64,000 nt of DNA. Origin: an uncultured Sphingopyxis sp. (GTDB taxonomy: Bacteria > Pseudomonadota > Alphaproteobacteria > Sphingomonadales > Sphingomonadaceae). Within the stretch, counting starts at the first letter, position 1; every line of letters begins with the position of its first letter. The notes below the pieces were generated by a model that saw nothing but the letters and a program-made list of their open reading frames with translations, was not told where the DNA came from and did no database searches. A program made the translations under genes and the position numbers. Positions 15,711 to 34,772 of this stretch are shown here, piece after piece. Location: contig CAYNXF010000004.1 in the NCBI GenBank assembly GCA_964401155.1, forward strand, positions 42,887 through 106,886, given 5' to 3'.

Positions 15711-16750
15711 CCGATACCGCTGCGCGCCGCGCCGCGCGCGGGGCCGACGCGCTGCGGCGCGGCTGGCCGGTGCGGATCGGCGGACTCGACCTGCTCGCGG
15801 TGGAAAGCGCCGATGACCGGGCGCTCGCGAATTTTGCCAGCGCCGACCTCATCCTCTCGGGCGAACGTGCGGCGACGCTGAAGCTCACCAACCAGCGCGC
15901 GGCAGCCGCGCCGGGGCCAGTGCGGCTTGCGGGCGCAGGCACCAGCGTCGCGGCTGCCCTTGCGATCGCCGACCCGGCGCTTGATTTGGCGCATCCGTTC
16001 AAGGGACCCTTTTCGACCGTACCCGTTGGGGACGAAGCCGCCGCCACTGCCGCAATCACGCTGGCCCGCCACATTGGCATTTTGCCCGCTGCCTTCGTGC
16101 GCGCCGCTGGGGGGATGGTTGAGGCCGAATTGGAAGCCGAGGATATTTCAGCCTTGCTGGATCCTGCCCGGCTGCGCATCGCGGCGCGCGCGCAGCTGCC
16201 GGTTGCCGCTGCCGAGACAAGTGAAATCGTCGCCTTCCGCTCGCCTGAGGAAGCGTCGGACCATGTCGCGCTGATCATCGGCCAACCCACCGCCGCGCCC
16301 CCCGTGGTCCGCTTGCACAGCGAATGTCTGACCGGCGACGTACTGGGCAGTCTGAAATGCGATTGCGGGCCGCAATTGCACGCCGCGCTCGCCGCCATGG
16401 CGGCGAACGACTGGGGCATCCTCCTCTATCTGCGGCAGGAGGGGCGCGGCATCGGCCTTGTCAACAAACTGCGCGCCTACGCCTTGCAGGATCAGGGGTT
16501 TGATACGGTCGATGCCAATATCCGGTTGGGCTTTCCGGTCGAGGCCCGCGACTTTGCTATCGCGGCGCAGATGCTCAAGCTGCTCGGACGCACCTACATC
16601 CGGCTGATGACCAACAACCCTGACAAGGTGGCGAGGCTGGTCTCCGAAGGCATCGACGTCACCGAGCGGTTACCGCTGGCGCTGCCGCCTAATCCGCACA
16701 ACGAACATTATCTGGCGACCAAACGCGACCGGACGGGCCACCAGCTTTAG
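15707..16750 (+). CDS. ribA: GTP cyclohydrolase II with N-terminal extension domain
   Basis: VRLHSECLTGDVLGSLKCDCGPQL and YLRQEGRGIGLVNKLRAYALQD. The probable TTG start at 15707 overlaps the xth stop; the longer track ORF would overlap xth. Confidence 0.85.
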   Translation: MTDTAARRAARGADALRRGWPVRIGGLDLLAVESADDRALANFASADLILSGERAATLKLTNQRAAAAPGPVRLAGAGTSVAAALAIADPALDLAHPFKGPFSTVPVGDEAAATAAITLARHIGILPAAFVRAAGGMVEAELEAEDISALLDPARLRIAARAQLPVAAAETSEIVAFRSPEEASDHVALIIGQPTAAPPVVRLHSECLTGDVLGSLKCDCGPQLHAALAAMAANDWGILLYLRQEGRGIGLVNKLRAYALQDQGFDTVDANIRLGFPVEARDFAIAAQMLKLLGRTYIRLMTNNPDKVARLVSEGIDVTERLPLALPPNPHNEHYLATKRDRTGHQL

Positions 16751-17550
16751 TGCACGAAGCGCGCCACTACGTCGCGATAGCTGCGCGACACTTTGACCTG
16801 CGCACCGGACCCCAACACCAGAAAACATTCTCCATTGGTGTGCGGCTTGACCTGTTTGACCTGACCCAAATTGACGATGGTCGACCGGTGGACGCGCTGG
16901 AAGTTTCTGGGATCAAGCCGCTTTTCCAGATCTTTCATCGTCTCGCGCAGAATTAGCGAATTGTCGGCGGTATAGATGCACATATAATCGCCGGCGGCAT
17001 CAATCCGCTCGATGCTGTCAACGTCGACGCGGAAAATCTGGCCGCGATCCTTGATGTTGATCAGCTTTTCATAGCGGTCCGCCGACGGCGCTTCGGCTGA
17101 AGGCTCGGACAGTGTATCGGCCACGTCGGGGGCGATTTCGGCGATCACCTCTTTAAGCCGCTCGACCTCGGCAGCGCCGCGCTTTTCCAAAAGACGCTGG
17201 CGCACCCGGTCGAGCGCGTCGGCCAGCCGTTCGGGTTCGACCGGCTTGACCAGATAATCGACCGCCTGCGCCTCGAAGGCGCGGATCGCATGGTCGCTAT
17301 AGGCGGTGACGAACACCACCAGCGGTGGTTCGACATCCATCAGCCCCTGCAACACCGAAAAGCCGTCAAAGCCCGGCATCTGGACGTCCAGAAAGACAAG
17401 GTCAGGCTTGTGCGTTTTGATTTTGCGAATGGCCTCGCGCCCGTTCTGGGCCGTGTCGACGATCTCGATGTCGGCGTGCGGTTCGAGCCGCAACTGCAAC
17501 CCCTGCACCGCCAGTTTTTCATCATCCACCAAAATGGTGCGTATGGTCAT
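16747..17550 (-). CDS. LytR/AlgR (LytTR DNA-binding) family response regulator
   Basis: Receiver domain (ILVDDE, DLVFLDVQMPGFDG, KP) plus a C-terminal LytTR domain (FQRVHRSTIVNLGQV). Confidence 0.9.
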   Translation of the reverse strand: MTIRTILVDDEKLAVQGLQLRLEPHADIEIVDTAQNGREAIRKIKTHKPDLVFLDVQMPGFDGFSVLQGLMDVEPPLVVFVTAYSDHAIRAFEAQAVDYLVKPVEPERLADALDRVRQRLLEKRGAAEVERLKEVIAEIAPDVADTLSEPSAEAPSADRYEKLINIKDRGQIFRVDVDSIERIDAAGDYMCIYTADNSLILRETMKDLEKRLDPRNFQRVHRSTIVNLGQVKQVKPHTNGECFLVLGSGAQVKVSRSYRDVVARFVH

Positions 17551-17582
17551 GCGCGGGTTAATCCAATCATGTCTTGGCCAAT

Positions 17583-18686
17583 CTAGTCCGGTGCGGCCGC
17601 TTGATACGGAAATTCGATAACGACCAGAAAACCGCCTTCAGGTCCTGAACGCACATCAAACCGGCTGCGTTCCCCAAAAGCCTGTGCCAGCCGGTCGCGA
17701 ATATTAGCGAGGCCAACGCCGGTGGAATCTGTCGTCACCGGCAAAGTGGGCGCTGTTGGCACGGCTGACAATCCCGGGCCCGTGTCCGACACGCTGATCC
17801 GCACATTTTGACCGGCGAGCTGTGCCGTCACCGTGATGTCGGCCCCTTCCTCCTGCGGCGACACCGCATATTTGATGGCATTTTCGATTAATGGCTGCAG
17901 CAGCAGCGATGGCAGCCGCGCCTGCTCGGCCGCCGGATCGATGCTGAAATGCGGTCGCAGCCGCTCTTCGAAGCGCATTTTTTCGATCTCGAGATACAAT
18001 TTGAGCGTTTCGATTTCCTGCGCCAGCGTTACCTGCGCGGTTGGTTCATTCGCCAGCGTATAGCGCAGGAAAGAGGACAGCCGCGACAGCATGGCATTGG
18101 CGGGGCCCGTCTGCTTGAGCAGCACCAGCGTCGAAATGCTATTCAGCGTATTGAACAGGAAATGGGGGTTGAGCTGATAGCGCAGCATAGCGAGCTGCGC
18201 CGATGCGGCCTGCGCCTCAAGCCGCAGCATGCGATCCTGTTGCTCCTCCAGCTTCAGGAAATAATTGATGGCGTAATAGAGCGCCGACCACGCCGCGACC
18301 GACGTCGCGTCTATATAAAAGGCAGCCAGAAACAGGCTGGTGAAGCCAACCTCGCTTGCCGGATTCTGGATTTGCGCGATCCAGGCGTCGATAAAGGCCC
18401 AAAGCCCAGTCGCCAGCCCGGCCAAAAGGAACGACACGCTCCACATCCACAGCGGGCGCCGGTCGATCAGCTGGCCATAAAAGACCGACAGGATCAAAGT
18501 CAGCGAAAAACCGGTGACCGCCGATATCGTCTGCGGAATCAGAAAGCCGATGGGTTGGCCGGTGGCGAGCCCCGATACGCCGCGCAAACCCAGCCACGCC
18601 AACCAGCCCAACGTTTGTAGCCGCCAGAAGGCACGCACTTTGTCATCGAAGAAAGGGCCCTGATCGGAAAGCGCAAGCAGCGACAT
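17583..18686 (-). CDS. LytS-type sensor histidine kinase
   Basis: Multi-TM N-terminus, the His_kinase motif QLNPHFLFNTLNSIS and a GHKL ATPase (DTGPG, GVGLANIRDRL). Start taken at the internal ATG 18686. Confidence 0.85.
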   Translation of the reverse strand: MSLLALSDQGPFFDDKVRAFWRLQTLGWLAWLGLRGVSGLATGQPIGFLIPQTISAVTGFSLTLILSVFYGQLIDRRPLWMWSVSFLLAGLATGLWAFIDAWIAQIQNPASEVGFTSLFLAAFYIDATSVAAWSALYYAINYFLKLEEQQDRMLRLEAQAASAQLAMLRYQLNPHFLFNTLNSISTLVLLKQTGPANAMLSRLSSFLRYTLANEPTAQVTLAQEIETLKLYLEIEKMRFEERLRPHFSIDPAAEQARLPSLLLQPLIENAIKYAVSPQEEGADITVTAQLAGQNVRISVSDTGPGLSAVPTAPTLPVTTDSTGVGLANIRDRLAQAFGERSRFDVRSGPEGGFLVVIEFPYQAAAPD

Positions 18687-18732
18687 TGGTGAAGTCGGCG
18701 CGATGATCAGCTGCGGGCGCGGGCGCGGACGG

Positions 18733-19236
18733 TCATTCGGCCGCGATGACCAGTGGACGGGCGCTGCCCAGCGGTTGCAGTTCGGCGCGGTGCTTCCAGC
18801 ACAGCTCCTGATAGGCGAGCGCGCGGCCGTCATGCGCTTGCAGCGTCAGCGGCCGGATCGGCTGTTCGTCATGAATATCGACGAGCACTGGGGTCGAGGG
18901 CACGCCATCACCCCATTTTTCGCCCCATTGGCGCAGCGCGATCATCGCCGGCAGCAGGTCCATGCCCTTTTCCGTGAGGGCATAATGTACCTTGCGCCGA
19001 TCGCAGACCATCACCTGGCGCTCCAGCACGCCATGTTCGACCAGCCGCGCCAGCCGGTTGGACAAGATGTTGCGGGCAATGCCCAGCACTTGCTGAAATT
19101 CCTCGAAATGATGCACACCGTTGAAAGCGGCGCGCAAAATCATGAACGACCAGCGCTCGCCCATCGCCTCGAGCGCAACCGGCAGCGCGCAGTTCAGCCC
19201 TTCGGCTTCGCTCAATGGCTCGCGTAACTTTCCCAT
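18733..19236 (-). CDS. HxlR-family winged-helix transcriptional regulator
   Basis: CALPVALEAMGERWSFMILRAAFNGVHHFEEFQQVLGIARNILSNRLARLVEHGVLER. Start taken at ATG 19236. Confidence 0.85.
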   Translation of the reverse strand: MGKLREPLSEAEGLNCALPVALEAMGERWSFMILRAAFNGVHHFEEFQQVLGIARNILSNRLARLVEHGVLERQVMVCDRRKVHYALTEKGMDLLPAMIALRQWGEKWGDGVPSTPVLVDIHDEQPIRPLTLQAHDGRALAYQELCWKHRAELQPLGSARPLVIAAE

Positions 19237-22342: not shown

Positions 22343-22351
22343 GGGGCAGCC

Positions 22352-22513
22352 CCCTCTCCCTCAGGGGAGAGGGCAGCGAGACCTGGTGGCTTTGCCACCT
22401 AGTCGCAGCGGAAAAGGGGATGGGCTCTCACGATAGTGCACACACCCTCACCCAGCTTCGCCTAGACAACAAGTTGCCAAGGCTGCGCAACCCTCTCCCA
22501 TGAAGGGAGAGGG
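22352..22513. repeat. pair of near-identical 9-bp-stem hairpins in direct orientation, flanking about 117 bp
   Basis: ccctctccc-tcag-gggagaggg (22352-22373) and ccctctccc-atgaa-gggagaggg (22491-22513). They sit in the convergent spacer between relA/spoT and the decahaem gene. Confidence 0.65.
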
Positions 22514-22520
22514 ACTAGAC

Positions 22521-25500
22521 TCAAGGCGCATCGCTCACCTTATACAGCAGCGACTGGCCGTCCTTTTGATAGAGGAACAGCGCTTCCATTTCCTTGCGCG
22601 TAAACGGCCGCGAGCCCAGCCGCCCGAACACCGCGATCTGGCCGCCGGTTTCATCGACGGCGCGGTCGCGGTCGAGGCCTTTGGACAGCGCCAGCGCGGC
22701 GCTGGGCGTTTTGGCCCAGGCAATCATTTCGGGCACCGGGCGCGGTGAGAAGCCATAGAAATTGGGCTGGCTCGACGGGCTGGTAAGCTGCAGGATTTTC
22801 ACCCCGTTGCGCCCGTCGGCGACATAGGCGAACAGCGAGGCGTTGGTGGTCGCGACCATCACATCCTCTACATCGTTCATCGTCCCGCCAAAGGTTAGCG
22901 ACGGCCAGACCTGCGGCGCGGCCGGGCGGGTGACATCGACGATGACCAAGCCATCTTGTTTGGCCGCGACATAAAGATAGGTGCGCGCGAGATAGAGTTT
23001 GCGCGCATTGGCGAGGCGGATGGTGCCCGCCGGGACCGCCACGGGTGCGCGCAAGTCGGTAACATCGAACAGCTTCACCCCGTCGGCGTCGGTGACCCAT
23101 AGATAACGGAACTGGATGGCGCTGGCGCGGGCATCGCTGAGCGGGATTTGCGCCGTTACGCGCGGCTCGAGCGGCTTGTCCAGATTGACCACCACCAGCC
23201 CGGCGTCGGTGGTGATATAGGCAATGGTCCCCGCCAGCGTGATGTGCCGCGCCCCGGCCAGGACATTGTCGGGATTCCAAGTCAGCGCGCGGGTCAGTTT
23301 GTTGTTACGGAACTCGCCATCGGCCAGCGTGTCGATATCGACCAGGATCAGCCCTTCGGCGGCATCGGTGATGATGGCGTAGCGATAAAGCTCGTGCATC
23401 GCCTGTTCCTGATTTTCGGGGAAGTTGGCGGTAATGTCGCGGTTTCGCTTGACCGAAATCGGCTGGGTGGTGCCGATGGCCATACAGGTGGCGTTGCTGG
23501 TCTTTACATGCGTGTCGTGCCCCAGCGCGCTGAACGGTGCGCGGACGATGCGTTCGGAAAAACCCTTGTTGCCGATGCTCGCGATATCATAGACGCGAAA
23601 ACCCCCGCGCCCTTCGGCCACGAACATATATTCGCCGCGCTGTTGCAGACAGTTCACCCGCCCGCTAGTGCCCTGCACGATATTGGCGAACTCCTCGAGC
23701 GCTTGGGTTTCACCCGAGAATTTCTTGTCGAACGTCTTGCCGCGCACCCAGTTTTTGAGCTCGCGACCATTCTGGTCGACGTGCAGCCGGTAATAGTCGG
23801 GATAGGCATAACGGTGGAGATAGCTGCCGATTACCGCCTGTGGTTCATCCCATTCGGTGACGCGGGTCGCTTGAAAACCGTCCTCCATGCCTGACCACAC
23901 GTTCAGCCCGACGAAGTTGACGAAATTGGTGCCAAGCAACAGCAGCTGCGACATGATGGCATTGTTGTCGTCGGCAGCCGACAGGTGGCAGTCGCTGCAC
24001 TGCTTGGTTTCTTGCAAGCGTACGGTGTGCGGGAAGTGCGGCGCGAACGCCTGTGAAGAATAGCCCGCCGAGGAAATTGGCGGCTGCTGGATATAGATGC
24101 GCTCGCGGTTGATGTTGGTCGACGACAGCACCAGCGCCGAGGTGGAGCGCACCGGCGCGATGATATTGCCCTTGGTCGTCTGGTGCCGCCCCAGCTGGAA
24201 CATTTCGTCGCGCGCGACCTGCGGATTATAGGTCGCGAAATTGCGCGACTGGTCGCCTTCGAAATGATGGCCCTTGGTTTTCCAATTGGCCTCGATCGGC
24301 AAATGGCAACCGCCGCAGCTGGTTGTCCAGGACAGGTGACAGGTGAAGCAGGTCAGCTTGTCATCGCCATGCGCACGCTCGGCGGCGGGGATGCTCGCGT
24401 CCCACGCGAATTCGCCATTGCCACTGTTCAGGCGCGCCATGAGCTTGGCGCGCGCCGCCTTGGCATTGAATTGCGGCGCGCCCTTGGTCACCGTTTGCTT
24501 GACCAGGCTGACCTGCCATTCGAGCTTGGGATCGACAATCGAGCGCTGGATCAGACCCACCGCGTTGCCGTCATCATCATACTGCCATTCAAAACGCCGC
24601 CGCCCGTCGGGGTTGCGCAACAGCGCCAAATTGGTCCCCTGAGGCCGCGCCGCGACGTTGGAGGTGAGCAAGTTCGGCAGCGCGTCGGCGGTACCGTGGC
24701 AATCTTTGCAGCCAATTTCGACGGCGTTCGCCACCTCGCCCTGAATATAGCCATTGCCATGGCTGTCCTGCGCGAAATGGCAATCGGCGCACTGCATGCC
24801 CTTTTCGGCGTGGATGTCCATCATATGCACGGTCTTGCCGGGGTTGAGGCCCGCGGGGACGAATTTGCCCTCGACCCCCGGCTTGTCGGGATCGGCATTA
24901 TCCTCGCACAACTTCACCTGCTCCGGCGTCGGCAGCAGTGCGCAGCGTTTGCGCCAACGTTCGGGATCGTCGGGCGAAACGATATTAGCGGTGTCGGTGC
25001 CATAGGTCGCCATATTGCCGTCGGCGTTCAACAAATTGCCGTTGCGGTCGCGCTTGAAAATGCCGCGGAAATTCCAGCCATGACCGTGATAATCGGCGAA
25101 CTGCGTGTCCTTGTTGGTCGGGTTGACGTCATAGACGTCGCGCAGGAATTCGACGTCACCCCACAGCCCCTTGGGTGCCGCAGCCTCCGGATTGCGTTGC
25201 AGGATCGCCAGCGTTTCCTTTGCGGTGGGATAGCGCTGCTCGCGATATTTCTTCGCGAACTCGGCGTCGCTCATCCCGGCGGGTTTGGGCAGCGTGTTCT
25301 CTGGCCCCGGCCACAGCTGCGGGGCGTCGGATTCATAGTCCCACATGGTATAGCCCAAATAGCTGTTCAGGAAGATATTGGGCTGGTGCATGTGGCAATT
25401 CATGCACTGCGCAGTCGGGATGGCGCGGGTGAAAGCATGCTGGATAGGGTGGCCCGATTCCTTGCGCTTGCCGCCTTTCGGATCGATCAGCGCGCCGTGC

Positions 25501-26753
25501 CCGCTGCCGTCCCAGCCATCACCCGCCTTGCCGTCACCGCCATGGTTGTCATTGCCGCCATGCGCGTCACCGTAACCGGGCTTGGCGCCGGGCAGCACCA
25601 TCTTGCCCTTGATTGTCGGGTCGACCGTCGCGGTCTGGCCGTCGCGGCCATATTGCGCCCAGGTCAGGCTGTGGCGCGGTTCGCGGTCGTTGGCATAGAC
25701 GACATGGCAGCTCGCGCAGCCCGACGAGCGATAGTCGCCCGGCTGGTCGTTGGTGCCCATAAACCACATGAAGGGATCGTTGAGCCGCGTCTTGTGGATG
25801 TTGAGCACCGGGATGGCGACGCGGATGCCGGTGCCAGGGCCACGGTTCGATTGTTTAAGGTCGGGTCGCCCCGGCTCCTCGAGCCGCTGGATGCTGCCGG
25901 TGGGGTTGGGGAGGCCGATTTCGGGGAACTGGGTGATGATGTTGCGCCCGCCGCGCTCGAACACGCGGAACACGTCGCCCGGCGGGATGACGGTCCAGTT
26001 GGGCAGCGGATACATTTTGCCCAGCGCGCCGCGCGCGCGTTCCTTGTCGGACAAAATCTTGTCGAAGGGGAAGGACGGATCGCACGCCTTGGCATATTCC
26101 TCTTTGGTCAGCGTGGTCGTCGGCGAGAGCAGGCAGGCGGGCTTGCCATCGCGCGTATAGGCCTCGCCCATGATGTAATTTTTCTGCTTGAGGATACCGT
26201 TGTTATAGGCCGCGCCGCCCCACAGCATCGCGCCCGTCGCCATGATCGAGCGTTCGGCCGCCTCGATCACCTCCAGATGGCACGACCCGCACGCCTCGCG
26301 CGCGACGCGGTAATCGCTGGGGTTGACGAAGCGGATGAACTCGGGCGCCTCGCGGTTGAGCAGCGTGTAACTGCGCTGCGGGTTGGCCGAAGTGCCGTGC
26401 CAGCTGGTGGGATAGGTCGGCTGGACATGGGCTTGGCGTTCGGCGGCCTTGTTGTCGGCATGGTCGTAGCCGAGCGCGGGGTTGCCGCGCACGCTGGCAT
26501 CGCCGCCGTGGCAATCGGTGCAGCCCAGCCGCACCGCGGGCGTCTTATGCATCGTCGGCTGGTCTGTCTGGACGTGGCAGCTGTAACAGCCGTCCGATTT
26601 CTCGGCCATTTGCGCCAATGTCTGCTCGCGCGGGGCGGGCGGGGTGAAGCGATAGACGACCTTGACCGGCTTTTCCTTCTCCGCCGCCTGCACCGCCACG
26701 GGTGCGGCAATCAGCGCGAGCAGGGCAAGGATGAGGCGGGTCAGCAGGCGCAT
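22521..26753 (-). CDS. secreted decahaem c-type cytochrome fused to a C-terminal LVIVD-repeat beta-propeller (1410 aa)
   Basis: Sec signal MRLLTRLILALLALIAAPVAVQA. Ten CxxCH motifs: CYSCH, CTDCH, CGSCH, CASCH, CMNCH, CADCH, CKDCH, CFTCH, CGGCH, CSDCH. Six LVIVD-like blades: GFRVYDI, GLILVDI, GLVVVNL, GVKLFDV, GLVIVDV, GVKILQL. ATG 26753 lies 2 nt after the upstream stop. Confidence 0.85.
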   Translation of the reverse strand: MRLLTRLILALLALIAAPVAVQAAEKEKPVKVVYRFTPPAPREQTLAQMAEKSDGCYSCHVQTDQPTMHKTPAVRLGCTDCHGGDASVRGNPALGYDHADNKAAERQAHVQPTYPTSWHGTSANPQRSYTLLNREAPEFIRFVNPSDYRVAREACGSCHLEVIEAAERSIMATGAMLWGGAAYNNGILKQKNYIMGEAYTRDGKPACLLSPTTTLTKEEYAKACDPSFPFDKILSDKERARGALGKMYPLPNWTVIPPGDVFRVFERGGRNIITQFPEIGLPNPTGSIQRLEEPGRPDLKQSNRGPGTGIRVAIPVLNIHKTRLNDPFMWFMGTNDQPGDYRSSGCASCHVVYANDREPRHSLTWAQYGRDGQTATVDPTIKGKMVLPGAKPGYGDAHGGNDNHGGDGKAGDGWDGSGHGALIDPKGGKRKESGHPIQHAFTRAIPTAQCMNCHMHQPNIFLNSYLGYTMWDYESDAPQLWPGPENTLPKPAGMSDAEFAKKYREQRYPTAKETLAILQRNPEAAAPKGLWGDVEFLRDVYDVNPTNKDTQFADYHGHGWNFRGIFKRDRNGNLLNADGNMATYGTDTANIVSPDDPERWRKRCALLPTPEQVKLCEDNADPDKPGVEGKFVPAGLNPGKTVHMMDIHAEKGMQCADCHFAQDSHGNGYIQGEVANAVEIGCKDCHGTADALPNLLTSNVAARPQGTNLALLRNPDGRRRFEWQYDDDGNAVGLIQRSIVDPKLEWQVSLVKQTVTKGAPQFNAKAARAKLMARLNSGNGEFAWDASIPAAERAHGDDKLTCFTCHLSWTTSCGGCHLPIEANWKTKGHHFEGDQSRNFATYNPQVARDEMFQLGRHQTTKGNIIAPVRSTSALVLSSTNINRERIYIQQPPISSAGYSSQAFAPHFPHTVRLQETKQCSDCHLSAADDNNAIMSQLLLLGTNFVNFVGLNVWSGMEDGFQATRVTEWDEPQAVIGSYLHRYAYPDYYRLHVDQNGRELKNWVRGKTFDKKFSGETQALEEFANIVQGTSGRVNCLQQRGEYMFVAEGRGGFRVYDIASIGNKGFSERIVRAPFSALGHDTHVKTSNATCMAIGTTQPISVKRNRDITANFPENQEQAMHELYRYAIITDAAEGLILVDIDTLADGEFRNNKLTRALTWNPDNVLAGARHITLAGTIAYITTDAGLVVVNLDKPLEPRVTAQIPLSDARASAIQFRYLWVTDADGVKLFDVTDLRAPVAVPAGTIRLANARKLYLARTYLYVAAKQDGLVIVDVTRPAAPQVWPSLTFGGTMNDVEDVMVATTNASLFAYVADGRNGVKILQLTSPSSQPNFYGFSPRPVPEMIAWAKTPSAALALSKGLDRDRAVDETGGQIAVFGRLGSRPFTRKEMEALFLYQKDGQSLLYKVSDAP

Positions 26754-26755
26754 CG

Positions 26756-28942
26756 TCAATAACTCAAGATGACATTGGCGAGGATGGAATAATAGGCATC
26801 GGTTTTGGGTTTCGAATCGAACAAATCCTTGAAGCCGCTGCCCGGAACGAAGGCGGCTGCTGACAGCCGCCCGACGATATTCTGCATCGCCTTGGGCCGC
26901 CAGATCGCAGCGACCGACACGTCCCAGCCGATATCTTTGGGGATCGACCCTTCGGTGCGCAGCGCCTGCAGCACCGAGGTATCTTCGAACCACAGATGGT
27001 TGAGGTTGAAGCTGACCCGCGTCTGCGGCGAGAAATCAAGGTCTGCGCCCGCGCCGACAAACATGGTGCCGGGGTTATTGAAATTGGACTGGCCCTGTTC
27101 CTTCGACGAGCGCAGGCTGTTCAATATGCCGTTGCGGCCATTAACGCCAATGACGCGCCCGCCGCCCGCAAAGGGAATGGTCTGGCGGATCCAGTAGCTG
27201 GTGTCGGCCCCGCCAAAGATGGGGTTTTCGAAAATGGCGTCGAACCCGCCCTCGGTATTGTTATAGGGGTCGCTGTCGCCGGTGGCATAAAGCGCCGACA
27301 GTCGGAAACGCAGCCAGTCGGTGTCATAGCTGAGTTCGGCAGCGGCAAAGCCAGCCCGAATTTTGGCGGCGCGGCTGGTGAACAAGCTGTTCCGGTCCTC
27401 GCCCAGCACGCCATAAAGGCTGGCGGTCACATTGATCCGCCCGATACGGCCATCGGCGTTGTAACCGATATAATAGGCGTCATAGTTGCGCCCGCGCAGA
27501 TCGCCGAGCAGCGCGGGACGCACCGGAAAACCGTTGGTATCAATCTCGACGTCGCTCGCCTCGCGGTTGAGGTTAGCCACCGCAGTGATCTGGCTGGTCA
27601 GCCCGACGAAGGGGAAATCCTGGCGATAGACATTGGCGATAAAGACATAATCCTCACGCGGCGTCTGCACTACCGAGTTGAGGCCCGAATTGGTGTCCTT
27701 TTCCAGCCGCCAGAAGGCGGCAAGATTATATTGGAAGCGGTTGTTGTCGCGGTTGCCGAACAGGCGCACGCCCAATTGGCTGTCGTTGAACAGGAAACCC
27801 CGAAAATCCGACTGGAAGGGCTGGATGCCCAGCCGGATCGAGTGGAAATCATAACGGTCGCTGTCGTCGCGCAAATGTTTGTCGATGAAGAGTTCCTGCA
27901 CGCCCAGAAAATGGTCGAGGCGGTCCGATTTCTTTGACGGCTGGACAAACAGCACGCGCCGTTCGGGCACGTCGACATAGTTGATGTTGTAGGCGAGCGT
28001 CAGCCGATATTCGACATCGGGCGGCTTGAACGCGGTCATCCCCTTGATAAGCGCGATGCCGCTGATGAAGGTTTGCGACAACACCAGGCTGGGGTTGCGC
28101 CCGAACACATCGAGGCTGCCGGGCCGTTCGGTCGTCTGCACGCCCACAGGGATAGGAAAGGTGCGCGGCTCGACCACCGTGTCGCTGACTGCGCTGACCA
28201 CAAAAAACCAGTCAGGGCTTTCGAGGCCGAGGAATTTTGGCGTGGCGCATTTGGGGATGCTCGCCGCCTTGCGCTTCGCCTGCTCTTCGTCGGTGGGGAT
28301 GCAGATCGGCCGGTCGCCTTTCAGGAGATTCTGGTTATAGGGGTCGAACCAGCGTTCCTTCACAATGCCGAGCGACTCAATAAGCCGCCAGCGGTCGGGC
28401 ACCGGCAGCTGGTTTTCCATCAGCGGAAACGCCGAGGGCGGCGGCGGGCGCAGCGCGCCGGGGTTATCCTGCGTCACTTGGGGCGGCAGATCGGGACGAT
28501 AGCCGGGGCGGCGGCGGCCTTCGATAATCTGGGTCACCAGATCGCCCGACAATTGATCCTGCCAGTTAATCGGTGGCGGCGGCGGCGTGAGCTCTTCGGC
28601 CCCGGGTTCTGCCACTTTTTCCGGATCATCGGGCGCGATGTGGGCAGGCGCGGCGTCGCCGGGTTCGGCGTGCTGCGCGGCACCGGCCGTCAGGAAAGCG
28701 TCGGCCAAGCGGGGCAGTTCCAACTGGACGGGGGGCAGTTCGGGGCGACGCTGCGGCAAGGCGGAGCGGGTGGGGTCCGGCTTCGCCAGAAAATCTTCCA
28801 TCGCCTGCACATCTTGCGCGAGCGGAAAGACGCTGGCCCCGTTGAGCAGCGAAGCCGTCAGCGGCACGATGGCAACCACGACGCTCACAGCCCGTCGCAG
28901 ACATTCTGCGCCGCGGTATCCAGGAAGGGCGCAAAGGGGCAA
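26756..28942 (-). CDS. predicted outer-membrane beta-barrel protein with Pro-rich N-terminal region
   Basis: Signal-like RRAVSVVVAIVPLTASLLNGASVFPLAQ, PPPPP tracts, then alternating hydrophobic strand patterns, ending in the aromatic terminus ANVILSY. The alternative GTG start at 28888 overlaps the upstream stop (GTGA). Confidence 0.65.
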   Translation of the reverse strand: MPLCALPGYRGAECLRRAVSVVVAIVPLTASLLNGASVFPLAQDVQAMEDFLAKPDPTRSALPQRRPELPPVQLELPRLADAFLTAGAAQHAEPGDAAPAHIAPDDPEKVAEPGAEELTPPPPPINWQDQLSGDLVTQIIEGRRRPGYRPDLPPQVTQDNPGALRPPPPSAFPLMENQLPVPDRWRLIESLGIVKERWFDPYNQNLLKGDRPICIPTDEEQAKRKAASIPKCATPKFLGLESPDWFFVVSAVSDTVVEPRTFPIPVGVQTTERPGSLDVFGRNPSLVLSQTFISGIALIKGMTAFKPPDVEYRLTLAYNINYVDVPERRVLFVQPSKKSDRLDHFLGVQELFIDKHLRDDSDRYDFHSIRLGIQPFQSDFRGFLFNDSQLGVRLFGNRDNNRFQYNLAAFWRLEKDTNSGLNSVVQTPREDYVFIANVYRQDFPFVGLTSQITAVANLNREASDVEIDTNGFPVRPALLGDLRGRNYDAYYIGYNADGRIGRINVTASLYGVLGEDRNSLFTSRAAKIRAGFAAAELSYDTDWLRFRLSALYATGDSDPYNNTEGGFDAIFENPIFGGADTSYWIRQTIPFAGGGRVIGVNGRNGILNSLRSSKEQGQSNFNNPGTMFVGAGADLDFSPQTRVSFNLNHLWFEDTSVLQALRTEGSIPKDIGWDVSVAAIWRPKAMQNIVGRLSAAAFVPGSGFKDLFDSKPKTDAYYSILANVILSY

Positions 28943-30846
28943 CTAACATAGCGCAGGCGGACGGTGCGATTGTCGGCGAGCGTCACGATGATGCGGTCAG
29001 CGCGGATGGCGAGCGGGGCATTGCCGATGCCGCCAACGCGCGCGCCGGCATTGTGCGTGCCCAGAAAGCTGATCATGTCGTCCTGATCGATGCCGTCGCC
29101 CGACACGCCAATCGCGCCGACCAGCCGATTGCCGCGATAGACGGGCACCGATCCCGGGAAAATCTGGATGCCATTGTGCAGCCGGTTCTGCGCGGGTGCG
29201 ACATCGGGCAGCGTGGTGCAGCGCTGCGGCGTATCGGGCCCCAGCCCCAGCACAAAGCCCAGATGCTGGCCGATATTGCCGATCACCAGCGCCGATTGCA
29301 GGCCGGTCGAGAAGGGATTGAACTGCGCGATGGGGCGCGACAGCGGACCATTGGGGCGGCCCACTTCACCATCGGGGAAATAGGGCCGCGCGATATTGCC
29401 GACCGAGCGATTGCCATAGGCGAAGGTGCCGGTTAGCGCCGACTGGTCATTCAGAAACGCCCGCGTTGCCGTCACCATGGCCGCAACGTCGGCACTGCCG
29501 CTCGCGGCGAGTTCGGCCCCCGCATTGGGGTGCGCAAAGAAATTCGCGGTGCGCGCCTTCTGCAGGGATACGTCGATCCCGAAAATCGGGGCGTCGGGTG
29601 ATCGCACCTGCCCAAGCACCGCGCCGTGCGTATCAACGAGGCTGATCGTCACCTGCGCGCGGCTGTCGAGCGGGCGGCGGATCTGGGCGCGCGCGCGGCT
29701 CATTACCGTGAAGGCTTCTTCCAGGATGGCGCGCGATTCGGCGAGCGTCAGCGGGGTGGGGTTGCTCGCCGCGTCGGTTCCGCCGCGCAGCGGGAAGCGC
29801 GCAGCGCCACTGCCGTTGGTGAGCAGAAAGGCGTCGCGGTTCGAAAATTCGGCCGCGGTGGAGGCACGGATGCCCGAAGCTTCGCTGCCATAGGCAGTGC
29901 CAGCAAGGATTGTCGCCGCCGCATATCCGGTCACCGCAACCAGCGTTCCGGCGGGTCCGTTCAGCGTCGCAAAGGCAGGCGCGCTGGTGGTGCTAAGCCC
30001 GGCGACGGTGGCGTCGGAAAAGCGCAAGCTGGTGCCATCGACGGTAATCCGGTCGGCGCGGATGTCGGTGGGTGCGTCAAAGCCGCGGGTACCAGCGAGC
30101 GCGATAAATTCTTCCGCGTCATTGTCGACGTCAAGGATATTGGGGTCCGAGCCATAGACGCCATCGGCCATCACCCCAACCCCGCCGACCAGCACGCCAT
30201 TTTTGTACAGCGGCAACCCGCCGGGGTCCGCCGCCAGCCCCAGCGGCGAACGCTTGGGGCCTGTCAGCGCCGCTGCGCCCGCTGCGCCAAAACGCTGGTT
30301 CAGGTCCGAACAGGGCAGCTGGCTGAACTGCACCCCGAACAAGGGCCCGCTTTCGAGACCCACGGTCGTCGGCGCGGGCGGGAAATGTTCCTGCACAATC
30401 TGGCTGGCCGTGCGCGTGGAAAAGGCGTTGCCGCCGCTCGACAGATAGGCCCCGGTAATCGCCTTGGCGATGGCTCCCGCCTCGGCCGGGAAGGTGACAT
30501 TCTGCGCGTCGATATTCGCGCCATTGGCTGCAGCGCTGCTGGTCGCATTGGCGCGGGCGCCGGTCATGCGGAACACGGCGAGCACATTGCCGACGCGGTC
30601 GGTGACGGCGATGACGGCGGGCAGGCTGCGCGCCTGCGCCTCCGCAATGCTCTGCGCCAAAACCCGCTCGACATCGGCCACGCTCAGCGATTCGGCGGCA
30701 GGAACCGAAAAGAGGTTGCCCGCAGGCGGCGGGGTGGGCGTCGGCGTGGGCACCACCGGCGGCGCGCTGCCGCCGCCCCCGCCGCAGGATGCAAGCAGTA
30801 AGGCCGCAATGGTCGTGGCAGATGTCAGGGGTCGCCTTTTCTGCAT
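28885..30846 (-). CDS. lipoprotein with two GlcG/HbpS (DUF336, haem-binding-type) domains
   Basis: Lipobox LLLAS-C, Gly5 and a PT linker. Unit 1: LSVADVERVL...AVIAVTDRVGNVLAVF...LYKNGVLVGGVGVMADG. Unit 2: LTLAESRAIL...ISLVDTHGAVLG...VYRGNRLVGAIGVSGDGIDQDD. Each unit is followed by IRADRI(T/I)V. Confidence 0.7.
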   Translation of the reverse strand: MQKRRPLTSATTIAALLLASCGGGGGSAPPVVPTPTPTPPPAGNLFSVPAAESLSVADVERVLAQSIAEAQARSLPAVIAVTDRVGNVLAVFRMTGARANATSSAAANGANIDAQNVTFPAEAGAIAKAITGAYLSSGGNAFSTRTASQIVQEHFPPAPTTVGLESGPLFGVQFSQLPCSDLNQRFGAAGAAALTGPKRSPLGLAADPGGLPLYKNGVLVGGVGVMADGVYGSDPNILDVDNDAEEFIALAGTRGFDAPTDIRADRITVDGTSLRFSDATVAGLSTTSAPAFATLNGPAGTLVAVTGYAAATILAGTAYGSEASGIRASTAAEFSNRDAFLLTNGSGAARFPLRGGTDAASNPTPLTLAESRAILEEAFTVMSRARAQIRRPLDSRAQVTISLVDTHGAVLGQVRSPDAPIFGIDVSLQKARTANFFAHPNAGAELAASGSADVAAMVTATRAFLNDQSALTGTFAYGNRSVGNIARPYFPDGEVGRPNGPLSRPIAQFNPFSTGLQSALVIGNIGQHLGFVLGLGPDTPQRCTTLPDVAPAQNRLHNGIQIFPGSVPVYRGNRLVGAIGVSGDGIDQDDMISFLGTHNAGARVGGIGNAPLAIRADRIIVTLADNRTVRLRYVSCPFAPFLDTAAQNVCDGL

Positions 30847-30856
30847 AAATCCAGCC

Positions 30857-32281
30857 TTAGCGCAGCGCCCGGATGGCGCGCACCGCGCTGCCGAGCGCGG
30901 CCTGAAAGTCGGCGGGGCGATAGGCATTGGGGTCCTTGACCGCCCCATAGGCACGGTCGATGTCGCTGCGGATACCAGCTGCCGCGCCGATGGTGACGCG
31001 GCCAGAAGCGACCATAGCGTTGAGCAGCGTGTCGATCCCCATCACCGCCTGCACTGAACCGGAGTAATCGGTGAAGCGCGGCGCAATTGCGCTGCCCGCG
31101 ATGGCGTCAACCAGCCGGAAGCCGTCCTCGGTCGAAAAATTGCGCGCCGCGAAGGCGTTTTCCAACTTCGCGCTGGTTTCGGCGAGCGCGGCGGCTGCCT
31201 TGACAGCACTGGTACGCCCTTCGGCCATCGCTGCATGGAATGCCTTGCCGCGCGCATCAAGCTCGGCAGCAAGGCCGGGATCGGCCAGCCGCGCAGCCGC
31301 CGCGAGCATGATCATATTTTCATCGTTGAACGGCGGCATCCCTTCGGGCAGACCCGCTCGGCCGGGATTGTTGATGCCGGTGCGCACCGCTTTGGCTTGA
31401 TCGAAAATGCGGCGATGGCAGCTGTGGCAATCATAGAAGTAGAATTCGGGGAACACGCCTTCGGTCCCGCGCCGCGACTGGAACAGCGCAAGGCTGCGCG
31501 ACAGCGCTGCCGCCTGCCCCACCGCCCACATCTGCATATGATCAGGCGCGCCCTTGCGCACCGTATAATCGCGGTCTTCGGCATGATGCTGTTGGAGGGT
31601 CGAGAAGAGGTCCATTTCAAAGGCGATGCGCGGATGCCCCGCCGCCATGATGCGGTGGGTGACGAACTGGCCATCGCCCGCCGCGCCATAATGGCAATCG
31701 AGGCAGACGCGCGCGCGCACTTTGGGGTCTTCCAGTTTGACCAGGCCTGCACCCAAATTGGCCAAATGTTTGGCGCGCATCTCAGCGTCAGGGTCGGCGC
31801 TGGTGCCCACCCCGGCATAATGGCTCGCCAGCCAGCCCCCCGACGGGCCGTGGCACGATTCGCAGCCAACCCCGTCGCTGCGATAGGCCGAGCCGCCGAC
31901 CGCGTCGCTGCTGTGGCAGCCCAGGCACATCGGCGCGCTGCTCGCGTCGCTGATCCCCAGATTGCGCGCGATGAATTGGCTGCGGCCGTTCGACAAAACC
32001 GCATAAGCGCGGCTGTGCGCACCGCCAGGGGTTGATGGTTCCTGCCAGCGCATCAGCTCGTCCTGGCGCACGACGGTCCCGTCGCCCTCCATCCGGCCGT
32101 GACAGGTCGACCCGGCGCAGGAGGCGACCCCGGTAAAGCGCGGCCCCCCTTCGGCCTGCGCCTGCGTCGCGGGGGCGCGGATGATGCCAAACGCCAGCAG
32201 GGCGCAGGCAAGCAACATGGCAACGAGCCCGAAGCGTCCGCTCCGCCCCGTGATCCAGCTGCGCAGTTCCATCCCCTGCAT
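30857..32281 (-). CDS. multihaem c-type cytochrome (4 CxxCH + 1 CxxxxCH) with N-terminal hydrophobic helix and Ala-rich helical C-terminal domain
   Basis: CAGSTCH, CLGCH, CESCH, CLDCH, CHSCH. Helix FGLVAMLLACALLAFGII. The ORF opens at GTG 32290, but ATG 32281 has an AAGGGGG RBS about 9 nt upstream. Confidence 0.8.
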   Translation of the reverse strand: MQGMELRSWITGRSGRFGLVAMLLACALLAFGIIRAPATQAQAEGGPRFTGVASCAGSTCHGRMEGDGTVVRQDELMRWQEPSTPGGAHSRAYAVLSNGRSQFIARNLGISDASSAPMCLGCHSSDAVGGSAYRSDGVGCESCHGPSGGWLASHYAGVGTSADPDAEMRAKHLANLGAGLVKLEDPKVRARVCLDCHYGAAGDGQFVTHRIMAAGHPRIAFEMDLFSTLQQHHAEDRDYTVRKGAPDHMQMWAVGQAAALSRSLALFQSRRGTEGVFPEFYFYDCHSCHRRIFDQAKAVRTGINNPGRAGLPEGMPPFNDENMIMLAAAARLADPGLAAELDARGKAFHAAMAEGRTSAVKAAAALAETSAKLENAFAARNFSTEDGFRLVDAIAGSAIAPRFTDYSGSVQAVMGIDTLLNAMVASGRVTIGAAAGIRSDIDRAYGAVKDPNAYRPADFQAALGSAVRAIRALR

Positions 32282-32322
32282 GGCCGTCACCCCCCTTTGA
32301 CCCCCCGGTCGAATCCCCGCCC

Positions 32323-33678
32323 CTATACCACGCCAAAGGCCAGCATGGCATCGGCAACTTTCTTAAATCCGGCGATATTTGCGCCCTTCACATAGTCGAT
32401 ATAGCCGCCGCCCTGATCACCATAGGCCAGACAACGTTCGTGGATGCCGTCCATGATATCCTTCAGCATCTGTTGCAACTCGGCTTCTTTCCAGCTGCGC
32501 CGTTCGCTGTTCTGGCTCATTTCGAGGCCCGAAACCGCGACGCCGCCGGCATTGGCGGCCTTGCCCGGCGCGAACATGATTTTCGCATCCTTGAACACAT
32601 GCACGCCGTCCAGATTGGTGGGCATGTTCGCACCTTCGCTGACCGCGATGCAACCGTTGGCGACCAGCGTCTTGGCATCCTCGCCCAGCAGCTCATTCTG
32701 CGTGGCGCAGGGCAGCGCGACATCGCACGGCACGCCCCACGGTGTTTTGCCCGCATGGAAGCTCGCCGACTTAAACTCAGCGCAATAATCCTCGATGCGG
32801 CCGCGCCGGTGCGTCTTGTGCGCTTTCACCCAGTCGATCTTTTCCTGCGTGATGCCGTCAGGATCGTGAATAAAGCCGCCCGAATCCGAAAGGGTCAGCA
32901 CCTTGCCGCCCAGCTGGACAATTTTTTCGGCCGCGTGCGTCGCGACATTGCCCGATCCCGAGATGACCGCGGTCTTGCCAGTCAGGTCCTGCCCCTTGGC
33001 GGCGAGCATATTGGCGAGGAAATAGACCGCACCATAGCCCGTCGCCTCAGTGCGGATAAGACTGCCGCCCCACTCCAGCCCCTTGCCGGTCAGCACGCCG
33101 GTGAATTCGTTGGTGATGCGCTTATATTGGCCAAACATAAAGCCGATCTCGCGCCCGCCGACGCCAATGTCACCGGCCGGCACGTCCACATCCGCGCCGA
33201 TGTGGCGGTACAGCTCGGTCATGAACGATTGGCAGAAGCGCATGATCTCGCGCACGCTTTTGCCCTTGGGGTTGAAGTTCGACCCGCCCTTGCCGCCGCC
33301 CATCGGCAGCCCGGTCAGCGCATTTTTGAACGTCTGTTCAAAGGCGAGGAATTTGAGGACCGATTCATTGACCGACGGATGGAAACGGATCCCGCCCTTA
33401 TAGGGGCCGATGGCATTATTGTTCTGCACCCGCCAGCCGCGCTGGACGCGGATATTGCCATTGTCATCCTCCCAGCAGACGCGGAACGACACCACCCGGT
33501 CGGGTTCGGCGATGCGGCGCAGGATTTGCTGGGCGTGATATTCTTCCTTGTCGGCCATGAAGTCGAAAATATCCTCGGCGACTTCCTGCACCGCCTGGAT
33601 AAATTCGGTTTGGCCGGGATTGCGCTTCTTCACACCCTCCATGAAGGTTGGAAAATCGACATGATCCGAAACTGCCAT
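32323..33678 (-). CDS. gdhA: NADP-specific glutamate dehydrogenase
   Basis: 451 aa. GPYKGGIRFHP and LPMGGGKGGSNFNPKG catalytic-Lys region, and GSGNVATHAAEK dinucleotide motif. Confidence 0.95.
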   Translation of the reverse strand: MAVSDHVDFPTFMEGVKKRNPGQTEFIQAVQEVAEDIFDFMADKEEYHAQQILRRIAEPDRVVSFRVCWEDDNGNIRVQRGWRVQNNNAIGPYKGGIRFHPSVNESVLKFLAFEQTFKNALTGLPMGGGKGGSNFNPKGKSVREIMRFCQSFMTELYRHIGADVDVPAGDIGVGGREIGFMFGQYKRITNEFTGVLTGKGLEWGGSLIRTEATGYGAVYFLANMLAAKGQDLTGKTAVISGSGNVATHAAEKIVQLGGKVLTLSDSGGFIHDPDGITQEKIDWVKAHKTHRRGRIEDYCAEFKSASFHAGKTPWGVPCDVALPCATQNELLGEDAKTLVANGCIAVSEGANMPTNLDGVHVFKDAKIMFAPGKAANAGGVAVSGLEMSQNSERRSWKEAELQQMLKDIMDGIHERCLAYGDQGGGYIDYVKGANIAGFKKVADAMLAFGVV

Positions 33679-33845: not shown

Positions 33846-34772
33846 ATGGCAGAAAGTGGCGGAATTTCGCGGATAAATCTGGCAATGCTGGCGATTGCTG
33901 CCGCCGTGTTGGCCGGGGCCATCGCCTATAGCCAGTGGGACAAGGGCGGCGACACGCCGAATCCTGCACCAACGGGCGCCGCCGCGAATCCGGCCGACTC
34001 GCTCGCCGCGCTCGAGGCTGCCGCGCGCGCCAACCCGCAAAGCGTCGATGCCTGGCAGACGCTGGGCGCGGCGCTGTTCGACACAGGGCGCTTTGCCGAT
34101 GCGGCGCAGGCGTTTGAAAAGGCCGTCGCGATCGCTCCGCAAACCGCCGTGCTTTGGTCGGCACTGGGCGAAGCAAGAGTTATGGCGAGCGAGCGCGACC
34201 CGATGCCGCCGCCTGCGCTGGAGGCTTTTCGCAAGGCCGCTTCAATCGACCCCAAAGACCCGCGCACGCGCTATTTTCTCGCCGTCAAACGCGACATTGA
34301 CGGCGACCACCAGGGCGCAATCAACGACTGGCTGGCGCTGCTGGCCGACACGCCTGCCGGAGCGCCATGGGAAGCAGACCTGCGGCGCACCATCGAACAG
34401 GTCGGGCAAATCCACAAAATCGAAGTCGCCAGCCGGCTCGCCGCCACCAAGCCGCGCGCGCTGACCGCCGAAGAGTTGCCCGTCGCCGCGCGTGCCATCC
34501 CCGGCCCCAGCCGCGCCGACATGGAGGCTGCGAGCCAGCTGCCCAAGGGCCAGCAAGACGCGATGATCAATTCGATGGTCGAGGGGCTGGAGGCCAAACT
34601 CAAAACCAACCCCACCAATGTCGACGGCTGGATCATGCTGATGCGCAGCCGCATGACGCTGGGCGAAACCGCCAAGGCCAGCGCGGCGCTGAAAAATGCG
34701 ATTGCAGCCAATCCGGGTGCGGCAGCGCGGTTGCGCGCGCAGGCCGAGCTGCTGGGTGTGCCGGGGGCTTAA
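33846..34772 (+). CDS. CcmI/CycH-like TPR protein (c-type cytochrome biogenesis accessory)
   Basis: N-terminal TM helix. TPR stretch ANPQSVDAWQTLGAALFDTGRFADAAQAFEKAV. DPRTRYFLAVKRDIDGDHQGAINDWLALL is typical of the CcmI C-terminal module. Confidence 0.6.
   Translation: MAESGGISRINLAMLAIAAAVLAGAIAYSQWDKGGDTPNPAPTGAAANPADSLAALEAAARANPQSVDAWQTLGAALFDTGRFADAAQAFEKAVAIAPQTAVLWSALGEARVMASERDPMPPPALEAFRKAASIDPKDPRTRYFLAVKRDIDGDHQGAINDWLALLADTPAGAPWEADLRRTIEQVGQIHKIEVASRLAATKPRALTAEELPVAARAIPGPSRADMEAASQLPKGQQDAMINSMVEGLEAKLKTNPTNVDGWIMLMRSRMTLGETAKASAALKNAIAANPGAAARLRAQAELLGVPGA

Follow-up and report, generated by a model that had tools for sequence, protein, structure and literature searches.

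What do the four tightly packed genes P1 to P4 (Table 1) do in a bacterium like Sphingopyxis, and do they represent one more porin-cytochrome conduit, as the initial annotation of this DNA had suggested by analogy with MtrCAB, MtoAB and Geobacter Pcc? The genes lie in a 64-kb window (the whole stretch of 64,000 nucleotides that was analysed, from contig CAYNXF010000004.1 of an uncultured Sphingopyxis sp.) and encode a pentahaem cytochrome, a lipoprotein with two GlcG/HbpS-like units, a putative outer-membrane beta-barrel and a decahaem cytochrome fused to a propeller. What is known of electron transfer across the bacterial envelope comes almost wholly from a small number of systems in specialists for metal respiration or iron oxidation. 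The gene set described here has thousands of homologues in several phyla, including common aerobic heterotrophs of soil and sea, and its conservation is unusually high. We propose that P1-P4 constitute a novel conserved envelope redox module and not an Mtr-like sheath conduit. To the more specific explanation, that they form the outer-envelope half of a conserved two-module system for multihaem electron transfer across the envelope, we give about an even chance. Judged from the gene neighbourhoods, the cluster would then be only half of a system, the other half being an inner-membrane module that the initial annotation overlooked.

Conservation of P1-P4 and properties of the encoded proteins

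The neighbourhood survey that the initial annotation had called for was performed with one genome per species and a 13-sequence alignment of P3 relatives, and returned at least 591 matches, the best 80 of which were all from Sphingomonadales. In every Sphingomonadales locus that was long enough (~80 loci) P1-P2-P3-P4 had one and the same order and orientation, with identities of 53-82% (tblastn), and the four genes can be said to travel as a unit across this order. The flanking genes change between loci, and only Sphingopyxis-like loci retain the gdhA and relA flanks. Outside the order it is the pair of barrel and decahaem genes that recurs, in Gammaproteobacteria, Acidobacteriota and Planctomycetota: the gene right after the barrel gene encodes a P4 homologue in each distant locus of sufficient length, an HbpS-like gene usually lies beside them, and P1 homologues are found before or after these core genes. 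The families are large: searches capped at 8,000 candidates gave more than 7,600 homologues of P3 and more than 7,800 of P4, and the P3 relatives form 1,442 clusters at 50% identity. Named hosts of P4 homologues include Halieaceae, Arenicella and a Nitrosomonas sp., and the distant loci add Vicinamibacteria (Acidobacteriota) and Planctomycetota. Sequence comparison at this scale shows that P1-P4 travel as one block through bacterial phyla. In one gammaproteobacterial-type metagenome contig (L086, 684-1613) a T2SSM_b gene, encoding a protein like the M component of the type II secretion system, lies just upstream of a full eight-gene cluster, a hint that type II secretion could export one of the components.

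P4 starts with a signal peptide (...AVQA, followed by AEK) and carries ten CxxCH motifs between residues 56 and 919 and six G-x-hydrophobic-D/N/Q motifs of the LVIVD type between residues 1050 and 1325. The latter region matches the Pfam family LVIVD (PF08309) with 41 bits against a cut-off of 20.2 (E 1.2e-10), and all motifs of the 1410-residue Sec-secreted protein that had been described at the outset are present. The ten haem motifs occur in all 76 orthologues and are invariant in distant homologues as well, together with 14 further histidines, and between Alpha- and Gammaproteobacteria the identity amounts to 62-68% across ~1000 residues. On sequence grounds P4 is shown to be a decahaem cytochrome fused to an LVIVD propeller. 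Its fold is less clear. Local similarities in the PDB and NCBIfam were limited to the region of haems 4-5 of NrfA, and single-sequence and profile searches of the PDB gave nothing useful beyond this marginal motif. An AlphaFold2 (AF2) model of the haem domain, made from 36 sequences, reached a predicted local distance difference test score (pLDDT) of 41, and a Foldseek search with it returned noise only. Both the density of around one haem per 90 residues (10 in ~900) and the very high conservation are closer to those of multihaem enzymes than to those of wire-like cytochromes of extracellular electron transfer, and we therefore read P4 as the terminal or catalytic component and propose that it may be a terminal reductase. 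The 14 additional invariant histidines imply that all of its haems could be bis-His ligated, and a catalytic haem is therefore not demonstrated.

The cytochrome P1 has CxxCH motifs at residues 122, 143, 196 and 288 and a CxxxxCH motif at residue 58, a pattern that is kept in 64 of 67 orthologues. The four plus one haem motifs and the N-terminal hydrophobic stretch of the first description are thus indeed there, in a protein that is slightly longer when read from its GTG start (Table 1). The hydrophobic stretch ends in AQA, followed by EGG, which points to a cleavable Sec signal rather than an anchor. P1 matches the Pfam family Cytochrome_C554 (PF13435) with 37.1 bits (cut-off 20.8), and in the PDB search it showed a weak similarity to Nitrosomonas cytochrome c554 (1BVB; E 0.039). 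It has a fifth haem motif beyond the four of c554 and a haem-free C-terminal half of 190 residues. The sequence features show P1 to be a secreted, c554-like pentahaem cytochrome, which we read as a putative periplasmic electron shuttle.

The description of P2 as a lipoprotein with two GlcG/HbpS units held up on all counts. Its N-terminus contains the lipobox LLAS-C, after which come GGGGG and a PT-rich linker, and three stretches together match the Pfam family HbpS-like (PF03928) with 78.8 bits against a cut-off of 25 (E 4.9e-22). The N- and C-terminal halves are homologous to each other (hhalign probability 99.3%, E 3e-20), and the best PDB sequence matches are the GlcG-family proteins EfgA and PduO-C. 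Of 74 orthologues, 66 have a lipobox with Cys and then GGG; the P2 proteins of L086 and of another locus, L084, have a plain signal peptide instead. By these signatures P2 is shown to be an outer-membrane-type lipoprotein of two GlcG/HbpS-like units, and by analogy with some GlcG/HbpS proteins it may bind a tetrapyrrole.

For P3 the single-sequence searches gave no Pfam, NCBIfam or PDB match, in the case of Pfam not even at E <= 10, and a profile search against the PDB yielded nothing useful. The protein had been taken for a barrel on the basis of a Pro-rich N-terminus and the terminal sequence ANVILSY, both of which are present, and an aromatic C-terminal residue is found in 84 of 85 orthologues. 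The AF2 model, for which an alignment of 26 close sequences was used, is of low confidence (pLDDT 45) and served solely for the strand count and the fold class; it has 18 long strands within residues 227-709. The top 17 Foldseek matches of the model were all to the 18-strand AlgE (E 7e-10, target TM-score 0.47), followed by MOMP and OprD/Occ porins, and MtrB was not among the 50 matches listed for this low-confidence model. We nevertheless used the model since its Foldseek matches form a consistent picture, in line with the weak matches in Pfam and NCBIfam: within 50 diverse P3 relatives Alginate_exp was matched weakly by four (best E 0.0089) and the NCBIfam porin DESULF_POR1 by 13, and MtrB_PioB was not among the 25 of 31 Pfam families listed for them. 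UniRef also names some P3 orthologues after alginate export. The conserved core comprises residues ~225-710, and the part in front of it differs between lineages, with SPOR, AMIN, SH3 or fn3 domains in P3 relatives; such variable N-termini fit a periplasmic, partly peptidoglycan-binding extension. Within the limits of a low-confidence model, the barrel assignment is borne out, and P3 is shown as an AlgE-like barrel of ~18 predicted strands with a Pro-rich and probably periplasmic N-terminal extension.

The best structural match of P3, AlgE of Pseudomonas aeruginosa (PDB 3RBH, 4AFK), shares only 10-12% sequence identity with it. Unlike AlgE, P3 has a Pro-rich N-terminal extension of 200 residues and a long conserved insert at residues ~539-605, and no alginate or polysaccharide genes lie nearby. 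Polysaccharide genes were likewise absent among the neighbours in ~170 related loci, where cytochromes, HbpS-like proteins and redox proteins were found. Because no polysaccharide genes co-occur in these loci, we reject a role as alginate or polysaccharide exporter.

Linkage to an inner-membrane module in other lineages

In distant P3 neighbourhoods a second set of genes recurs, which is predicted to act at the inner membrane. It includes a protein of 710-800 amino acids with Pyr_redox_2/3, two cNMP_binding (cyclic nucleotide monophosphate) and 4Fe-4S ferredoxin (Fer4) domains, which is a thioredoxin-reductase-like, cytoplasmic flavoprotein of the type that uses reduced nicotinamide nucleotides (NAD(P)H). 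The other members are a polytopic membrane protein of ~290 amino acids and a decahaem cytochrome with an N-terminal transmembrane helix, in many cases behind an FHA domain. Among Sphingomonadales other than Sphingopyxis, the set is located just downstream of P4 in ~45-50 of 81 loci, usually convergent with P4. The common order is flavoprotein, membrane protein, decahaem cytochrome, HbpS-like protein, barrel and the multihaem cytochrome with LVIVD propeller (MHC-LVIVD), with the gene for the c554-like cytochrome at either end. A reciprocal metagenome scan, anchored on the flavoprotein gene, recovered barrel and MHC-LVIVD in 29 of the 31 informative loci, 13 further loci ending inside the outer module. 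The gene neighbourhoods thus show a linkage of the outer and inner modules in most lineages.

The membrane protein has two pairs of histidines, His64/His78 and His254/His268, that are conserved in at least 95% of 46 orthologues, the members of each pair being 14 residues apart within a predicted transmembrane helix. Two His pairs with such spacing are the classical pattern of a transmembrane dihaem-b electron carrier. The protein matches DUF4405 and cytochrome b561 weakly and showed no match to Pfam Ferric_reduct. Eukaryotic NOX/FRE ferric reductases and bacterial MsrQ-type dihaem-b proteins follow a comparable logic, in that an NAD(P)H flavoprotein delivers electrons that cross the membrane via two b-haems, whose ligands are His pairs spaced by 13-14 residues. 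The comparison is one of analogy only and concerns the partner module, not the P1-P4 genes. A further companion of the inner module in Sphingomonadales, in loci L013 to L080 (e.g. 15844-16689 of L022), is a Metallophos protein in which the motifs of class III cNMP phosphodiesterases could be read from the sequence. This CpdA-like phosphodiesterase pairs with the cNMP-binding domains of the inner flavoprotein.

With respect to Sphingopyxis itself, a homologue search with the flavoprotein of locus L033 gave no Sphingopyxis name among the best 120 matches. L033 has gdhA upstream, as in Sphingopyxis, and the inner set downstream. This arrangement suggests that in Sphingopyxis the inner set was lost from this site or has moved.

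Parts of the inner module resemble two gene clusters from the literature. The ptdABCDEFG cluster was defined bioinformatically in marine Alphaproteobacteria (order UBA11136) and other taxa, and comprises a pentahaem cytochrome with beta-sandwich (PtdA), the porin PtdB, a flavin adenine dinucleotide (FAD) oxidoreductase, a tetrahaem cytochrome, a cNMP/2x4Fe-4S protein, a ferric-reductase-like transmembrane protein and a decahaem cytochrome (bioRxiv 10.1101/2023.11.21.568154). A metagenomic locus, L122 (3688-15072), which we equate with ptd by the published description only, encodes a 595-residue cytochrome with five haems, a porin-like protein of 553 residues with LRLKF at its end, a pair of c554-like cytochromes and also the same inner module. 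The c554-like cytochromes have the 4 CxxCH + 1 CxxxxCH pattern, and the best tblastn match to them, with P1 or the c554-like protein of L086 as query, was at ~39% identity. The outer parts are of a different kind: no homology was found between the pentahaem cytochrome of L122 and P4 (BLASTP, best E 0.031), nor between its porin and the P3 profile (hhalign probability 0.1%). If L122 is taken as ptd, the inner module and the c554-like 'tetrahaem' cytochrome are common to both systems, whereas ptd differs in its outer parts PtdA and PtdB and in lacking an HbpS-like protein and an LVIVD propeller. L122 therefore suggests that the inner module pairs with at least two unrelated outer modules. In the 64-kb window, tblastn found none of the ptd-type FAD/cNMP/iron-sulphur protein, ferric-reductase-like transmembrane protein and decahaem cytochrome.

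The other cluster is that of Ferrigenium straubiae, for which an FHA-nonahaem protein, a protein with five transmembrane helices and a 4Fe-4S protein were reported (bioRxiv 10.64898/2026.01.22.701106). By description only, it resembles the inner module in its cytoplasmic FHA domain, single transmembrane helix and periplasmic haems, accompanied by a polytopic membrane protein and a 4Fe-4S protein; it was described without the outer trio and is not present in this window. Judged from these published descriptions, the inner module appears to have been noticed twice already. The outer trio of tandem GlcG protein, AlgE-like barrel and decahaem-propeller cytochrome was described in no paper that we found, and the porin-cytochrome papers checked concern other systems. 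In agreement with the initial annotation, which did not recognise the set from any characterised system, no characterised complex matches P1-P4.

Electron flow and alternative explanations

In the two-module explanation that we favour, electrons would pass from NAD(P)H via FAD and iron-sulphur clusters to two b-haems, which would take them through the inner membrane to the anchored decahaem cytochrome. P1 would then carry them through the periplasm to a complex of P2, P3 and P4 at the outer membrane, where P4 would reduce an acceptor, with the propeller as a substrate- or partner-binding face. A barrel as narrow as that predicted for P3 could not sheath a cytochrome, so that P3 more likely anchors the complex and lets a small solute or a single polypeptide segment pass. 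The direction is probably outward, which we infer from the low potential of flavoproteins like thioredoxin reductase and of ferredoxin-type clusters. The cNMP-binding domains, together with the FHA domain and the CpdA-like phosphodiesterase, suggest in addition that electron flow could be gated post-translationally by signalling.

The best known systems for comparison are MtrCAB, MtoAB and PioAB (of Shewanella, Sideroxydans and Rhodopseudomonas), likewise operons of an outer-membrane barrel and secreted multihaem cytochromes, and a presumed role in trans-envelope electron transfer is common to both. In a classical conduit of the MtrCAB/MtoAB/Pcc kind, P1 or part of P4 would thread P3 and pass electrons on to a cytochrome at the surface, for the reduction or oxidation of minerals. 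With a barrel and both periplasmic and large multihaem cytochromes in one operon the right ingredients are there, P1-P4 give weak local matches to the DmsE, GSU2203 and ExtM models, and LVIVD has been described as cell-surface repeats (Pfam description quoted in bioRxiv 10.1101/2022.05.06.490989). The family models, however, do not support the analogy. P1, with five haem motifs only, scores 16.1 bits with the MtrA/DmsE model (TIGR03508) against a cut-off of 192.2, and P4 reaches 67.7 bits with the model of ExtM of the Geobacter selenite/tellurite Ext type (NF040943) against a cut-off of 800, in a local match around residues 644-695. P4 has no match to Mtrc-MtrF_II-IV_dom at E <= 0.01 and no lipobox, as would be expected for the MtrC/OmcA type, and it is more conserved across proteobacterial classes than surface cytochromes of extracellular electron transfer generally are. 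The barrel speaks against the analogy too, as it lacks any MtrB_PioB match and its model resembles AlgE and OprD. The barrel of MtrCAB is the 26-strand MtrB, which needs this number of strands to sheathe MtrA; through a lumen of AlgE size one polymer chain can pass. Given that P3, with ~18 strands in the model, is AlgE-size and not MtrB-size, a cytochrome-in-a-sheath mechanism is unlikely. P1-P4 further differ from MtrCAB by the extra tandem GlcG lipoprotein and the cytochrome-propeller fusion, and on the inner side they are partnered by an NAD(P)H flavoprotein and a dihaem-b protein, where MtrCAB has a CymA-type quinol dehydrogenase. All in all we consider a classical conduit an unlikely explanation of the cluster.

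A possible, if tentative, alternative is that P4 is a soluble or outer-membrane-tethered periplasmic oxidoreductase (compare NrfA, HAO, OTR and MccA), acting on a small solute, inorganic or organic, that enters through the AlgE-like channel of P3, with P1 as redox partner of the c554 type and P2 as an accessory protein that binds cofactor or substrate. The haem density and the conservation of P4 fit with this, as do its sole local similarities in PDB and NCBIfam, to NrfA, and the membership of P1 in the c554 family, the founding member of which is the partner of an enzyme, hydroxylamine oxidoreductase (HAO). The predicted narrowness of the barrel is also in line with it, and the propeller could be a substrate-binding domain. 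On the other hand, 14 invariant non-motif histidines for ten haems would allow bis-His ligation throughout and leave no open catalytic site, CxxCK or another known catalytic haem signature is absent, and the neighbouring genes give no clue to a substrate. Moreover, such an enzyme overlaps largely with the two-module explanation and differs from it only in the location of P4 and the cargo of P3. Much the same genes could also be arranged for the reverse flow, P4 oxidising a periplasmic or external donor (for example Fe(II) or Mn(II), humics in reduced form or a hydroxylamine-like nitrogen compound) and passing the electrons via P1 to the respiratory chain, comparable to HAO and c554. We find this very unlikely. 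It would account for the c554-like nature of P1, for P4 homologues in a Nitrosomonas sp. and for the absence of an adjacent NAD(P)H-type module in Sphingopyxis, and a cluster of FHA-multihaem, five-transmembrane-helix and 4Fe-4S proteins is expressed in the Fe(II) oxidiser Ferrigenium (bioRxiv 10.64898/2026.01.22.701106). Yet the linked thioredoxin-reductase-like flavoprotein and ferredoxin-type clusters would have to be run in reverse, uphill from moderate-potential donors, and most hosts (Sphingomonadales, Halieaceae, Arenicella) are ordinary aerobic heterotrophs.

Several observations weigh against the two-module explanation itself. None of the inner genes was found in the 64-kb window (tblastn), so that the outer module of this Sphingopyxis would have to receive its electrons either from an inner module encoded at another place in the genome or from a general periplasmic cytochrome pool. 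In some distant loci (L088, L089) no P2 gene lies beside the barrel gene. P4 has a plain Sec signal, with neither a lipobox nor a known surface-sorting signal, and may therefore be periplasmic instead of surface-exposed. The poor AF2 models of P3 and P4 leave the strand count of the one and the whole fold of the other uncertain, and the direction of flow and the substrate are matters that we infer only.

The two-module explanation can be extended, although we regard the extension as rather doubtful. The outer trio and its usual inner partner would in that case form a quinone-independent export chain across both membranes, which starts from NAD(P)H in the cytoplasm, ends at the cell surface and is gated by cyclic nucleotides and phospho-threonine signalling, as a bacterial counterpart of the eukaryotic NOX/ferric reductases. 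If true, such a chain could explain as yet unassigned extracellular activities in oxic habitats, for example reduction of Fe(III) or humics or a regulated production of superoxide, which is relevant given how widespread the genes are in aerobic heterotrophs (Sphingomonadales, Halieaceae, Acidobacteriota, Planctomycetota). Apart from this extension, the combination of a narrow barrel, a cytochrome-propeller fusion and a double GlcG-like lipoprotein would imply that haem chains are coupled to the outer membrane in a different way, and the link to an NAD(P)H flavoprotein and dihaem-b module, which bears cNMP and FHA domains, points to a route by which electrons could leave under regulation without passing through the quinone pool. 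Assignment of the substrate would give a function to a large 'hypothetical' family, and could alter the interpretation of the redox activity that aerobic heterotrophs show at surfaces, whether mineral or organic.

Arrangement and surroundings of the cluster

The features of the locus are compiled in Table 1. The four minus-strand reading frames and their junctions are as first described: a 10-nt spacer (30847-30856) separates P1 from P2, the stop codon of P2, which starts with ATG, and the GTG start of P3 overlap in the sequence GTGA (28885-28888), and 2 nt (26754-26755) lie between P3 and P4. With the alternative TTG start, P3 would extend over 26756-28942.

Table 1. Coordinates of the P1-P4 cluster and adjoining features in the window
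Feature	Position	Strand	Description
P1	30857..32290	-	secreted pentahaem c-type cytochrome, 477 aa from GTG start, c554-like N-terminal part
P2	28885..30846	-	653-aa lipoprotein, two enlarged GlcG/HbpS-like (DUF336) units after a Gly/Pro/Thr-rich linker
P3	26756..28888 (TTG 28942 possible start)	-	predicted outer-membrane beta-barrel, ~18 strands, AlgE-like, residues ~225-710
P4	22521..26753	-	1410-aa Sec-secreted decahaem cytochrome (~24-1000) with predicted six-motif LVIVD beta-propeller (~1010-1410)
Hairpin ccctctccc-ttcat-gggagaggg	22491..22513	-	perfect 9-bp GC-rich stem, read directly from the sequence
gdhA (glutamate dehydrogenase)	32323..33678	-	Pfam ELFV_dehydrog match

The hairpin begins 8 nt past the stop codon of P4 and is followed by TTGCGC only, without a strong T-tract. 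It was not listed by the consensus terminator scan, and is nevertheless likely to mark the 3' end of a P1-P4 transcript. Inside the cluster, neither promoters nor terminators rose above the shuffled background in the consensus scan. A near-identical GC-rich hairpin (both being of the form ccctctccc(c)-loop-(g)gggagaggg) is located at 22351-22373, and the two lie inside the 178-nt convergent gap between the stop codons of P4 (22521) and relA/spoT (22342); the pair may be a shared element, resembling repetitive extragenic palindromes, that terminates both genes.

At the other end, gdhA stops 32 nt upstream of P1, and this gap folds no better than shuffled sequence (z 0.63). As a terminator-like fold is lacking here, P1-P4 may be read through from gdhA in this genus. 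The adjacency of gdhA and P1 is confined to Sphingopyxis-like loci and a few others, for which reason gdhA is not considered part of the conserved system.

The GC content of 0.61-0.67 across the cluster, against 0.61-0.69 in the remaining window, and the housekeeping genes around it (gdhA, relA/spoT, putA, ftsK, nadE, gltX, prs and rpoN) agree with what had been stated on both points in the initial annotation. A horizontally acquired island was rejected on account of the native GC content and the same site of the cluster across Sphingopyxis.

Some other genes in the window deserve mention. Divergent from gdhA, at 33846-34772 on the plus strand, lies a gene for a 308-residue tetratricopeptide repeat (TPR) protein that matches the TPR domain of the cytochrome c biogenesis proteins CcmH/CycH (PF23914) and is a neighbour in Sphingopyxis sp. 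QXT-31 (L001) as well. Judged from this domain match, it could be either a coincidental neighbour or a helper in cytochrome maturation. Around 4 kb downstream of the cluster, past relA and a glycosyltransferase gene, a LytTR response regulator and a LytS-type His_kinase are encoded at 16747-18833 on the minus strand; the kinase, glycosyltransferase and HxlR genes are also found in Sphingopyxis sp. QXT-31. Finally, a carotenoid-oxygenase-like (RPE65) gene at 5563-7059 and a HupE/UreJ gene at 3750-4730, both on the minus strand, form one block with a gene for a protein like peptidyl-prolyl isomerases, which is unrelated to the cluster.

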